64,000 bases of DNA from Longimicrobiales bacterium (GTDB taxonomy: Bacteria > Gemmatimonadota > Gemmatimonadetes > Longimicrobiales > Gaopeijiaceae): positions 1,856,001 through 1,920,000 of the forward strand of contig CBDFMQ010000002.1 of assembly GCA_965249725.1 (NCBI GenBank), in the 5' to 3' direction. The notes under the pieces were generated by a model. That model saw only the letters and a list, made by a program, of their open reading frames with translations, did not search any database and was not told the origin of the DNA. The translations under genes were made by a program, and so were the position numbers. This document shows, piece by piece, positions 46,747-56,433 of the stretch (its first letter is position 1; every line of letters begins with the position of its first letter).

Positions 46747-46780
46747 GAAAAAGCCCCCAGATGTGAGCACATCTGAGAGC
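46747..46780 (-). terminator. Intrinsic terminator, duplicate of the one after tRNA-Ser(CGA)
   Basis: Minus strand GCTCTCAGATGTG-CT-CACATCTGGGGGC-TTTTT. Confidence 0.7.
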
Positions 46781-46853
46781 CGAGCGGACTTTGAGGGCGA
46801 TCTGGCACGGAGTTCTGGCGTCAGACGTCCGCTCCACCCGTTCGGCGCCGCCG

Positions 46854-47105
46854 CTAGGGGCGTCCGAACCGCGTCTCGAATCGATCGAAGCGTCCTTCAA
46901 GGCGGTCGATTCGCTCGGCGTTCCCTGTCACGCCCTCGGCCACCGCACGCAGGTCGTGGCCCAACTGTTCTTGGCCCACCTCAACACGGGTCAGCTGATC
47001 ACCGTGCTCCTCGTAGATGCGGCCGACCATCTCGTAGTTTCGCGAGATCCCCTTCGCGTTCTCTTGGATCAGGGATCTCAGTTCCTGGAATTGCCGTCGG
47101 GTCAT
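46854..47105 (-). CDS. Small coiled-coil hypothetical protein between duplicated terminators
   Basis: 83 aa; heptad pattern IDRLEGRFDRFETRF. Confidence 0.55.
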   Translation of the reverse strand: MTRRQFQELRSLIQENAKGISRNYEMVGRIYEEHGDQLTRVEVGQEQLGHDLRAVAEGVTGNAERIDRLEGRFDRFETRFGRP

Positions 47106-47184: not shown

Positions 47185-47218
47185 GAAAAAGCCCCCAGAT
47201 GTGAACACATCTGAGAGC
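47185..47218 (-). terminator. Intrinsic terminator ending the tRNA operon
   Basis: Minus strand GCTCTCAGATGTG-TT-CACATCTGGGGGC-TTTTT. Confidence 0.8.
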
Positions 47219-47222
47219 TAAG

Positions 47223-47306
47223 CGGAGCCGGTGGGACTCGAACCCACAAGTCCTTTTGGGACGCCGGTTTTCGAGACCGGTGCAATACCAGTTATGCGAC
47301 GGCTCC
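47223..47306 (-). tRNA. tRNA-Ser(CGA)
   Basis: CCGGT-CTCGAAA-ACCGG anticodon arm, long variable arm, G73. Confidence 0.88.
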
Positions 47307-47345
47307 ATGCTGTCGCGGGTGGGTCTAGGTGAAGTGTGTGTATAG

Positions 47346-47419
47346 TCGGGGCGCCCGGATTCGAACCGGGGACCTCTGCGTCCCGAACGCAGCGCTCTAC
47401 CGGACTGAGCCACGCCCCG
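47346..47419 (-). tRNA. tRNA-Pro(CGG), intact
   Basis: CTGCG-TTCGGGA-CGCAG; full cloverleaf. Confidence 0.95.
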
Positions 47420-47450
47420 ATTTACTGCAACAACGACACCGGTCTATTCC

Positions 47451-47605
47451 TACCGGCGCCCGGATGGAGCTGCGGTCGCCTTCGGCGATCCTCGCTCGTC
47501 TCGGCGGATACCACCTCGATCTTCGAAACCGACCCGCCGCCTCGGCTCGAACCGGGGACCTCTGCGTCCCGAACGCAGCGCTCTACCGGACTGAGCCACG
47601 CCCCG
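47451..47605 (-). pseudogene. tRNA-Pro(CGG) copy with an 81-nt T-loop insertion (47466-47546) and an altered acceptor 3' end
   Basis: Identical to the intact gene up to TTCGA; resumes at ATCCGGGCGCC, then GGT instead of CCG. Confidence 0.85.
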
Positions 47606-47636
47606 AATTACTGCAACAACGACACCGGTCTATTCC

Positions 47637-47792
47637 TACCGGCGCCCGGATGGAGCTGCGGTCGCCTTCGGCGATCCTCGCTCGTCTCGGCGGTTACCTC
47701 CTCGGTCTTCGAGACCCTAACAGGCGCCTCGGCTCGAACCGGGGACCTCTGCGTCCCGAACGCAGCGCTCTACCGGACTGAGCCACGCCCCG
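47637..47792 (-). pseudogene. tRNA-Pro(CGG) copy with an 82-nt T-loop insertion (47652-47733) and an altered acceptor 3' end
   Basis: Same pattern as the 47451 copy; second ~186-bp tandem unit. Confidence 0.85.
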
Positions 47793-47868: not shown

Positions 47869-47974
47869 ACGGGGTGGGATTGGCCGAGCTCCGCTCGTCC
47901 GTCTCGGCGAAGATCACCTCGATCTTCAATACCAGCCCGACGCCTCGGCTCGAACCGAATCCCACACACTACGC
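47869..47974 (-). repeat. Duplicated 3' end of tRNA-Ser(GGA) with a 69-nt T-loop insertion (47881-47949)
   Basis: Minus strand GTGGGATTCGGTTCGA[GCCGAGGCG...]ATCCCACCCCGT. Confidence 0.8.
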
Positions 47975-48106: not shown

Positions 48107-48216
48107 CGGAGGGAGTGGGATGGGCCGAGCTTCGCTCGGCGGTCTCGGCGAAGATCACGCTGCTCTCCGAAGAACACCCTGCCGCCTCGGCTCGAACCGA
48201 ATCCCACATCCTACGC
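48107..48216 (-). repeat. Duplicated 3' end of tRNA-Ser(GCT) with a 70-nt T-loop insertion (48122-48191)
   Basis: Minus strand GTGGGATTCGGTTCGA[GCCGAGGCG...]ATCCCACTCCCTCCG. Confidence 0.8.
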
Positions 48217-48800: not shown

Positions 48801-48943
48801 ATAAATGAACTCGAAGACCACTCTTTTCGCGAGGCGATTTTGGTGCAGGGCAAGGCGCCCCGACTGAGGCGTACAAACGTACGCCGCAGGGAGGGTCGAC
48901 CGTAGTCCCGACGCCACCATGCGCCAAAAGCGTCCGCGAAAAA

Positions 48944-49352: not shown

Positions 49353-49365
49353 TTCCCTAAAAACT

Positions 49366-49434
49366 CCGGACTAAAAGTCCGGTTACTGCCCGGACTACGA
49401 AAGTCCGGTAACTGCTCCGGACTCGTAAGTCCGG
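49366..49434. repeat. Three tandem hairpins CCGGACT-N3-5-AGTCCGG
   Basis: Units at 49366-49382, 49390-49408 and 49417-49434. Confidence 0.85.
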
Positions 49435-49444
49435 TTCCTACCTA

Positions 49445-49516
49445 TGCCCTCACGGGGAATCGAACCCCGATTACCAGGTTGAAAACCTGGCGTCCTAACC
49501 GTTAGACGATGAGGGC
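49445..49516 (-). tRNA. tRNA-Glu(TTC)
   Basis: CCAGG-TTTTCAA-CCTGG. Confidence 0.93.
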
Positions 49517-54627: not shown

Positions 54628-54701
54628 CGGGACGTGGCGCAGCTCGGTAGCGCACCTGAATGGGGTTCAGGGGGTCGCCGGTTCGAATCCGGCCGTCCCG
54701 A
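54628..54701 (+). tRNA. tRNA-Pro(GGG)
   Basis: CCTGA-ATGGGGT-TCAGG; full cloverleaf. Confidence 0.95.
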
Positions 54702-54720
54702 TTCATTGTGGAATAACGAG

Positions 54721-55059
54721 TTACGGGAACGGCTGCCTATTGAATAGGTGGCCGTTTCTCATGCCTACGTCGACTGCTCGAAAGAGCGTCCTTGTGCTCT
54801 CCACCTTTCGACTACCGCCGCTCTCCCAGCGATAGCACATAACGGTTCTGAGTTGCCGACGTGCCGAAGGCATGTCCCGTAGCGAAGCGAAGGGAGGGTT
54901 GTTCATCGGCTGGATGTCTACTTCGATTGACGTCCGCAGTCCCGGCGGCGCGGTCGGATGCTCACCAAGGATCGCTTGAGATCCAAAGACGAACAAATCA
55001 GTGTCGTCCGCGACGTCGCATGCCGCCCGGATGGCATGTTCAAGTTGATCGCGGGTCAT
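54721..55059 (-). pseudogene. Truncated DUF6036-like nucleotidyltransferase
   Basis: MTRDQLEHAIRAA..VFGSQAILG..SIEVDI; family resemblance is lost after about 55 aa. Confidence 0.6.
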
Positions 55060-55984
55060 TCTGTATCTCTAGATAGAGAAGAACCTCGTCTCGCTCATCG
55101 GCCGCCAAGGCAGCAAGAAACGGCGAGCTCTGTCGGAGTCGCTGGGCTCGGGAAGTCGTAGACACTAAGAACTCGCGAAGTCGCTCAATGGAATACTGCG
55201 ACAGTATGCTATGCCACTCTCGGAGATCATGAGCTGCTGCTCCCTGGTCTTTTTCCAAGACAAGCTCAAGGTGTCTAATCGCCCTCCGAACCAGCGACGG
55301 GTCGCGATCTAAGAGATCACTCACCGCTTCCGCTAGCCTCAATGCCCGCCGGTCACGGTCTCCATGGCCCGGAGGAGGACGGCTCGACGCGAGGGCTTCT
55401 ACGGAAGGCACGCCGGCGAGCAACGTCATCTTAGCCCAGTCAATGTTGGGTGCATCCGCACGACTGAAGCTGTGTACCTCGATGGTCAAGTCAAAGTCTC
55501 GCTCCACCTCCGCGATACGACTACGGATCTCGTCACTCAGCCACGCCAGTGAACCTGACTCTCCGACCACGCCAATGTGCAGCGGCTCTCCAGGCCGGGC
55601 CGGTGGGGCATCGAGCCAGGCAACTCGTATTTCGGTGAGGCTTTCAAGGGTATTGCGGATGCTCGCAAGTAGTCTCTGGTATCGGTCACTCTCACCTCGA
55701 AAGAGTGGAACGAGCTGTCTTGCGACCAGATCGTCGGTTCGTAATTCGAACTGCCGGGACCGTCCCCCGCCGACTCTTCGCACGAACCCAGTCTTGGCGA
55801 GGCGACCCAGCGCTCGCCGGGCACCGGCCTCCGTGAGGCCAGACCGATCTGCAGCATCGGCCACTGTAATCGGCCCAACTATCTCGTCAGCGAGAACTCT
55901 GAGGAGGCGTACCTGTGCCTTGGTTCCAAGTAGATCGTTAAGGGGGAACCGAAGCGTGTCTTGTTCTATCGCAATGGGTCTCAT
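55040..55984 (-). CDS. Winged-HTH protein with NTase-like middle and RQSSPF C-terminal domain (antitoxin-like)
   Basis: VADAADRSGLTEAGARRAL HTH; RAQRLRQSSPF; overlaps the NTase gene. Confidence 0.65.
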   Translation of the reverse strand: MRPIAIEQDTLRFPLNDLLGTKAQVRLLRVLADEIVGPITVADAADRSGLTEAGARRALGRLAKTGFVRRVGGGRSRQFELRTDDLVARQLVPLFRGESDRYQRLLASIRNTLESLTEIRVAWLDAPPARPGEPLHIGVVGESGSLAWLSDEIRSRIAEVERDFDLTIEVHSFSRADAPNIDWAKMTLLAGVPSVEALASSRPPPGHGDRDRRALRLAEAVSDLLDRDPSLVRRAIRHLELVLEKDQGAAAHDLREWHSILSQYSIERLREFLVSTTSRAQRLRQSSPFLAALAADERDEVLLYLEIQNDPRST

Positions 55985-56005
55985 GTTGATACGCAAGTTC
56001 TGTAA

Positions 56006-56043
56006 TAGATACTATTGTACTTGTTTAGATACTATAGTATCTA
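56006..56043. promoter_or_regulatory. Probable operator: 18-bp palindrome TAGATACTATAGTATCTA plus an extra half-site
   Basis: Palindrome 56026-56043 and half-site 56006-56015, upstream of the HTH gene. Confidence 0.65.
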
Positions 56044-56302
56044 TGTTCCCCAGTCAAGGATCCTGTAAAGGGCACACCCCAAAACCGTTCGTGCGGGACT
56101 GATCTAGAATCAACTGCGACCCCGCATTTGTGGCGCGATTCGCGCCCCGCGGACCACCTAAAGTCATCTACAACGGACACACGCACGGACACTCTTTTAG
56201 GGCCGGCAGAGTCCGGCATCCCCTCCCGCAAGAAACGGCAGATCGTGCACCCTACCAGTGATTTACACGGTTTCTTGCCGCCATTCGGCTAGTTGAAGGC
56301 TC

Positions 56303-56433
56303 GAATGGGGTTCAGGGGGTCGCCGGTTCGAGCCGAGGCGGCAGTGAGGCCTTCCGCGATGCGGCCAAAACACTCACCGCCGAGACGACCGGAGATCGCC
56401 GAAGGCGATCGGAGGTCAATCCGGCCGTCCCGA
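56303..56433 (+). repeat. attR-like 3' half of tRNA-Pro(GGG) with an 87-nt T-loop insertion (56332-56418)
   Basis: GAATGGGGTTCAGGGGGTCGCCGGTTCGA[GCCGAGGCG...GGTCA]ATCCGGCCGTCCCGA. Confidence 0.88.

Follow-up and report, generated by a model that had tools for sequence, protein, structure and literature searches.

Variable arms in two split tRNA-Pro repeats of a Longimicrobiales bacterium are probably the centres of a non-autonomous hairpin element

Results

Organization of the tRNA-Pro locus

Within the window (the whole stretch of DNA that was analysed, 64,000 nucleotides), a cluster of minus-strand tRNA genes is the setting of two near-identical repeat units (Table 1). ARAGORN calls three tRNA-Pro(CGG) in this cluster. 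Against the Rfam tRNA model, the call at 47345-47419 scores 67.7 bits, as compared to 31.7 and 35.7 bits for the other two. Read in the tRNA sense, each unit has the same layout: the tRNA 5′ part up to A58; an insert of 81 or 82 nt; the tRNA from position 59 (11 nt); and a spacer. The displaced 3′ piece matches the intact gene over 11 nt and then diverges, and in the RNA fold of the units it pairs into the spacer hairpin. The initial annotation of this DNA had noted the changed acceptor end and the new hairpin, and had judged these copies unlikely to be chargeable; the broken acceptor bears this out. By eye, the 9-bp spacer hairpin of the downstream unit is retained, with changes, in the same-genus genome G001.

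The initial annotation overlooked that the variable arm lies inside an insert splitting the T-loop at 58/59, and that the same insert occurs three further times in the window. One of these copies is carried by the displaced 3′-half of a tRNA-Pro(GGG) gene (54628-54701), 1.7 kb behind that gene. This insert, here termed the element, explains how tRNA genes come to be called falsely, as with the two surplus tRNA-Pro predictions at the locus. Elsewhere in the cluster, a terminator-like site follows tRNA-Ser(CGA).

The assembly was compared with contigs of four runs, one of which is possibly the source sample. A Logan contig of run X2 covers 47665-47752, and with it the whole upstream arm, with 0 differences. 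An assembly artefact was a concern of the initial annotation; as none of the pieces listed reaches across both units, there is no independent confirmation that two copies are present.

Table 1. Coordinates of the tRNA-Pro units and of the element copies in the window
Feature	Position	Strand	Details
Intact tRNA-Pro(CGG), functional copy, last of the Pro array	47345..47419	-	ARAGORN; Rfam tRNA 67.7 bits
Downstream unit	47420-47605		186 nt
Downstream unit: displaced tRNA 3′ piece and spacer	47420..47465	-	11 nt from position 59; 9-bp spacer hairpin captures acceptor strand
Downstream unit: hairpin element	47466..47546	-	81 nt; between T-loop positions 58 and 59
Downstream element: variable arm B	47507..47537	-	31 nt; 3 differences from G001 orthologue
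Downstream unit: tRNA-Pro 5′ part to T-loop split	47547..47605	-	Identical to intact gene
Upstream unit	47606-47792		187 nt
Upstream unit: displaced 3′ piece and spacer	47606..47651	-	1 difference from downstream unit
Upstream unit: hairpin element	47652..47733	-	82 nt; T-loop 58/59; 47665-47752 confirmed by run X2 contig
Upstream element: variable arm B	47693..47724	-	32 nt; 9 differences from neighbour arm, 8 from G001 arm
Upstream unit: tRNA-Pro 5′ part to T-loop split	47734..47792	-	Identical to intact gene
Element in duplicated 3′ fragment behind tRNA-Ser(GGA)	47881..47949	-	69 nt, with a short hairpin A; 0 differences from runs X1 and X5
Element in duplicated 3′ fragment behind tRNA-Ser(GCT)	48122..48191	-	70 nt
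Element in T-loop of displaced tRNA-Pro(GGG) 3′-half (att-like fragment)	56332..56418	+	87 nt; long arm

Divergence of arm and linker

The two Pro units differ at 10 positions: 9 in the 31/32-nt arm (8 substitutions and 1 indel) and 1 outside it. Under random placement, 9 of 10 differences fall inside 32 of 187 nt only 12 times in 1,000,000. The initial annotation had pointed to this concentration and to two changes that convert G-U to G-C pairs; both observations hold, the latter as G-T to G-C in the inner stem of the arm in DNA. Hairpin A, the second hairpin of the element, is identical in both units. The downstream arm has 9 differences from its upstream neighbour, 8 from the Ser(GGA) element and 3 from its G001 orthologue, and the assembly of the genome under study (G000) holds no donor for the upstream arm. 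Among 24 unrelated short arms compared pairwise, the median is 16 differences and the 5th percentile is 9, the value of the Pro pair.

Seventeen adjacent pairs of units were scored. Removal of 2 with non-homologous linkers and 4 with linkers more than 10% different left 11 tandem pairs; at 3 more loci a comparable linker is absent. The arms differ by 0-1 nt in seven pairs, which are plain duplications, by 5 in one pair, and by 9-11 in three. These three (the Pro locus, L160 and L227) have only 0-1 linker differences, and at L160 and L227 the second hairpin (hairpin A) also differs between units. This two-peaked distribution suggests separate insertions or whole-arm swaps, which fit it better than does steady hypermutation. 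Steady hypermutation of the arm was rejected: the arm rate exceeds the linker rate in 6 of the 11 pairs, is below it in 4 and ties in 1, and the pooled excess (39/464 in arms versus 16/805 in linkers) stems from 4 pairs. Variation focused in the arm, as the initial annotation envisaged, recurs at L160 and L227, where the same linker accompanies a different arm, but does not extend to the seven pairs with 0-1 arm differences.

The Pro locus could also reflect an old tandem duplication, after which the arm of an old, now immobile element drifted, whereas repeated conversion among the three tRNA-Pro copies preserved the identity of the flanks. Indeed, the Pro arms are more alike than most unrelated arms, and their units have the same hairpin A; moreover, 7 of the 11 tandem pairs are simple near-identical duplications. 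However, between G000 and G001 the spacer has changed more (11/46) than the arm (3/31), yet within G000 the spacer is fixed. At L160 and L227, drift of the arm would have to be accompanied by change in hairpin A next to linkers with 0-1 differences, and the filled and empty attC sites described below are left unexplained. This history is improbable, although gene conversion of the flanks, the simpler alternative offered in the initial annotation, could still explain the identical linkers.

Two further features of arms and linkers were observed. Arrays at L034, L085, L076, L003 and L005 often finish in a partial unit broken inside the variable arm, and the arm may be a break point. Behind the tRNA end at L155, L157, L160 and L016, linkers often mimic the arm design (loop strand, CCGC hairpin, loop strand) and are closed by an inverted copy of the tRNA end.

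Element copies share one junction

A loose regular expression run over the whole of G000 gives 24 matches, of which 16 were judged true full copies; the other 8, in which the second hairpin is absent, were dropped as chance. Of the true copies, 6 occupy integron attC sites and 10 the T-loops of tRNAs (Pro x4, Ser x2, Arg x3, Cys). In addition, there is a copy with an internal deletion, along with two truncated left ends. The junction GA^ATC is common to the T-loop copies (58/59) and the attC copies. In 18 empty attC sites of G000, GA is joined directly to ATC; the 6 filled attC sites hold the element between them. Comparison of the T-loop copies with intact tRNA genes is equivalent. Thus, filled and empty versions of one site exist with precise junctions, as is expected of a non-autonomous insertion element. 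There is no target duplication, as the element finishes in A (41 of 80) about as often as in C (36 of 80). In the broader collections, the patterns for the family, metagenome and out-of-family scans required ATC, and junction counts are to that extent partly built in.

The distribution of empty T-loops points to a site preference. RAATC is found in 0 of 7 G000 tRNA fragments with an unbroken T-loop, as compared to 20 of 52 scored gene loops; 2 of those 7 fragments derive from GAATC genes but carry an altered loop. Three att-like 3′ halves that extend back to the anticodon loop are filled.

The size of the mobile unit can be judged from two cases. At L059, the element interrupts a full-length tRNA-Pro gene without duplication, and the accessory array to which this gene belongs also contains a second Pro(CGG); the element itself can therefore be the unit. 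Behind tRNA-Val(TAC), the upstream GGTTC is retained even though the gene differs by a letter there, which suggests that downstream arrays may have a larger mobile unit. Some copies of the element follow tRNAs, and others occupy island att fragments or attC, places with no tRNA 5′ end; across the loci inspected, its placement in tRNAs would be confined to those for which a spare gene exists.

The exact position at 58/59, together with the intact acceptor stem of the element-bearing gene at L059, would suit an intron that is spliced out of the tRNA T-loop. Several observations make such an intron hardly credible: in the loci inspected, the interrupted copy is never the sole copy; the window copies have a broken acceptor and an intact copy adjacent; the junctions of a window copy, inspected by hand, form no bulge-helix-bulge; and the element also occurs in attC DNA.

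Other features of these sites include the following. An integron integrase and cassette array lie directly behind tRNA-Pro(TGG) (G000 C3:1022000-1030600), and numerous other attC clusters of G000 are also near tRNA genes. At L139 and L140, IS110-family elements with short inverted ends are inserted in attC arms, and one attC holds both an IS110-family IS and the hairpin element. In L185 and L194, at about 500-700, the element lies in a non-tRNA, tRNA-like repeat with GATCGA preceding the junction.

Fold of the element

The element is 65-95 nt long and comprises two hairpins: a CGAG-closed stem around the variable arm, followed by a GNA-triloop hairpin. The structure alignment retains 55 copies of 74 after removal of 6 chance rows. 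In the proposed stems, 92.6% of cells pair, and both partners vary in 13 of 23 pairs; this result is matched by 0 of 500 shuffles, and no slid register comes near. This covariation is inflated by relatedness, and the first stem is invariant and uninformative alone. Across the 55 relatives, pairing in the 4-bp inner stem of the arm (alignment columns 19/40 and 20/39) amounts to only 69%.

The nature of the conserved motifs bears on which nucleic acid is folded. The two invariant CGAG motifs are direct repeats that face each other as in the CGAG block, which, in the accessible text of PMC10085684, is described for DNA with sheared G-A pairs. Among 80 distinct sequences, the loop of the second hairpin is GNA in 55 and GNRA in 3, with 0 UNCG and 0 TNC. 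According to the accessible part of PMC13037366, only GNA forms the DNA mini-hairpin, and its RNA counterparts are far less stable. From the dominance of GNA loops, the CGAG blocks and the covarying stems, we infer that selection acts on the single-stranded DNA fold of the tRNA-sense strand, the strand that the initial annotation had also taken to be folded. When copies are folded one at a time, their scores do not reach significance (z -0.3 to -2.2 as RNA, -0.4 to -1.4 as DNA). The second hairpin also contains CCGAAGG, given in the same part of PMC13037366 as the mini-hairpin of the plasmid priming signal ssiA; by analogy, this hairpin could favour local re-replication.

The arm contains two variable loop strands. 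Its length is constrained (about 31-32 or 36-40 nt), and the loop letters are not; lineages differ in their arms because the loop strands are constrained in length and not in sequence. When fixed positions of one arm end were compared with those of the other, the best excess of pairing was only 0.15. In Rfam, only tRNA reaches the gathering score, and no credible match falls on the element at E up to 10.

These features allow evaluation of the proposal in the initial annotation that the units are an array of guide-like RNAs, with a constant scaffold and a variable arm, cut out by RNase P. The units are inside a tRNA cluster and would probably be co-transcribed, and a fixed arm length with two variable loop strands resembles the loops of bridge RNAs. 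Nonetheless, the arm ends match their own flanks with no excess (8.59 against 8.65 +/- 0.15; 2000 shuffles, 61 elements), while a search for distant targets would need strands longer than the 7-12 nt available. Triloops of the GNA type, which is a DNA motif, outnumber GNRA; the tRNA-cluster locus has no partner/effector or processing gene, and the Rfam search gave no match; and the element is dispersed, also in attC and att fragments, with the tRNA 5′ end absent from most copies. Adding to this the near identity of arms in 7 of 11 tandem pairs, guide RNAs are a very unlikely explanation.

Distribution among genomes

The number of Pro units varies across relatives, as the initial annotation had anticipated: of three same-genus genomes, G000 has 2, G001 has 1 and G002 has 0. 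At the Ser(GGA) fragment site, G000 holds 69 letters where G001 has only 2 extra. An exact pattern is positive in 32 of 301 family genomes, one of which (G277) looks like chance, and the reversed-pattern control gives 0. Genome G025 contributes to the tallies alone. A looser pattern gives 0 matches in 289 genomes of the phylum outside the family (f1), a search that would miss diverged kin. In a record scan, most of the 117 matches are chance, and the named records with true copies are titled mostly Longimicrobiales or Gemmatimonadota. A metagenome scan gives at least 123 loci, many of them true copies, and 13 of 13 matches in viral contigs looked like chance.

Relatives of the element were also seen. 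In other genera, L016, L017, L006 and L003 have simpler one- or two-hairpin relatives with tandem tRNA 3′-end repeats, and their units also start at position 59. L085, L300, L306, L328 and L332 have more distant, partly AT-rich variants with the same junctions.

Search for a mobilising enzyme

Candidate movers were sought by family. Y1 transposase is absent from G000 (95.8% complete). It is present in 13 of the 301 family genomes, comprising 3 of 32 element-positive genomes and 10 of 269 others, and element hairpins occur at 0 of 18 Y1 loci. Minimal GIY-YIG proteins are absent from G000 and from 33 chosen genomes; the GIY-YIG matches in these 33 are long frames (UvrC-sized or about 250-670 aa) except for one weak 95-aa frame. 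The IS110 copies of G000 have other ends and another site. Y1/RAYT, minimal GIY-YIG, IS110 and RT were each rejected as movers, with no link found. Overall, the searches for Y1, GIY-YIG, IS110, RT and integrase gave no gene linked to the element, and no autonomous copy with a gene was seen.

Integron integrase is present in 17 of 32 positive genomes and in 59 of 269 others, a comparison in which kin are not independent and lineage confounds. This enrichment would fit a mobile unit that is the whole repeat (element, tRNA piece and spacer): a gene-less circular mini-cassette inserted at 58/59 by a tyrosine recombinase such as the integron integrase, with the hairpins serving as the recombination site. 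The same idea would explain why downstream arrays repeat in register from position 59, and why, in G000, the filled Pro(TGG) unit is immediately followed by an integron integrase. It is at odds with the element standing alone in attC arms and in a full-length tRNA gene; with G001 and G068, which have several element copies and no integron integrase match; and with a junction that differs from the G^TT crossover of attC. On balance, a whole-repeat cassette is unlikely.

Discussion

Proposed origin of the units

Taken together, the shared junction, the filled and empty sites and the fold suggest that the arm is probably the variable centre of a non-autonomous element, inserted at GA^ATC in folded single strands by a putative trans-acting enzyme. 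The two Pro units are most likely traces of this selfish insertion element rather than guide RNAs.

In the proposed mechanism, a trans-acting enzyme would insert the element into folded single-stranded DNA. Insertion into the only working tRNA gene would presumably be lethal unless a copy were restored, so the element would survive in spare copies or with a duplicated linker. At the Pro locus, the working tRNA-Pro would have received a second, different element variant in its T-loop. The shared 11-nt 3′ piece would then have been the site of recombination or one-strand exchange, duplicating the linker and restoring an intact gene downstream. Alternatively, the same picture would result if the arm had been swapped later between its conserved ends.

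A bolder form of this proposal is possible, if doubtful: a still active site-specific ssDNA system, in which insertion at GA^ATC is so efficient that every spare RAATC T-loop is filled and in which a hit in a working tRNA is coupled to a 60-110-bp linker duplication. If so, arrays would grow as CRISPR arrays do, by a copied linker and a newly acquired variant, and would record insertion order; the same activity would edit integron attC sites.

Relationship to known elements

The element is probably a REPIN/PATE-like non-autonomous element, although it fails the defining tests for REPINs. In the accessible text of PMC3116915 and PMC3733652, REPs and REPINs are short non-coding hairpin repeats with conserved ends, thought to be moved as ssDNA by a RAYT acting in trans. 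Shared with these are the hairpin repeats, the conserved ends around a variable centre, nesting and tandem clusters (PMC3116915, PMC3733652). In contrast to REPINs, the element has a low copy number (16 per genome) and a fixed target, GA^ATC in tRNA T-loops and attC; it consists of two different hairpins in tandem, not two inverted REPs; most of its carriers have no Y1 transposase; and a RAYT (Y1) gene flanked by the repeat was not found. The accessible text of PMC3733652 has no relevant passage on tRNA as a target, integrons or Gemmatimonas.

Two further groups of repeats are similar in part. CGTC-tagged repeats, in the same accessible text, have no dedicated transposase, stems of 8-9 bp, loops of 4-5 nt and a CCA tail (PMC3733652). 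Here, the opposite strand reads CGTC where the first stem begins in 47 of 55 aligned copies; the GTAG or CGTC tag of REPs is unpaired, and this CGTC overlaps paired positions. The element as a whole differs in having two hairpins, a length of 65-95 nt and a large internal loop. In E. coli, tRNA-linked repeats (TLR) follow tRNA genes as tandem units, each closing with a duplicate of the tRNA 3′ terminus; their repeat is 18-19 nt long, and the accessible text describes no T-loop insert (PMC8144298). The element units likewise close with a duplicate of the 3′ terminus of the neighbouring tRNA (11-19 nt matches), but their repeat starts at position 59 and follows a conserved hairpin element. Also unlike TLR, the two Pro units are upstream of the intact gene; the Ser units are downstream.

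Non-autonomous derivatives of IS200/IS605 (PATEs) have hairpin ends and insert without target duplication. They differ from the element, which has no constant 4-5-nt target repeated at its end; what stays constant around it is a preceding GA and a following ATC. The IS1111-attC insertion sequences insert into attC arms, and IS110-family transposases are present in attC sites of G000. These sequences are bounded by inverted ends of their own and use a site some 10 nt away, and the element ends are unlike theirs by eye. With respect to attC sites and integron cassettes, the outer AAC...GTT core with its G^TT crossover is absent from the element; in the tRNA units, AAC and GTT adjoin a small loop (by eye). 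The element was not found described in the literature searched, a search outside of which most subscription journals and supplements lie.

The element would represent structured mobile DNA with one exact target in two unrelated hairpin substrates, tRNA T-loops and attC. With its defined sites, it offers a test of how enzyme-less palindromic repeats spread, a question raised for CGTC repeats in the accessible text of PMC3733652. The element may also fix islands and cassettes in place, through disruption of the sites at which they recombine.

Other repeats and islands in the window

Several other structures accompany the tRNA genes. A related hairpin repeat with GTAC motifs lies at 48850-48925 of the window, between tRNA-Arg and tRNA-Leu, with two similar copies elsewhere in G000 and two in L009. 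Three repeats with 26-bp spacing occupy 49360-49445, between tRNA-Asp and tRNA-Glu. A 42-nt direct repeat at 46747-46788 and 47185-47226 (terminator and tRNA-Ser(CGA) end) flanks an 83-aa frame (46854-47105), an arrangement that resembles a small insert at a tRNA end. Behind tRNA-Pro(GGG), two nested island-like stretches (1.7 and 17.7 kb) extend over 54701-56420 and on to G000 C3:1928475. These contain a Fic-like gene and no tyrosine integrase match, and their far fragment carries an internally deleted element.
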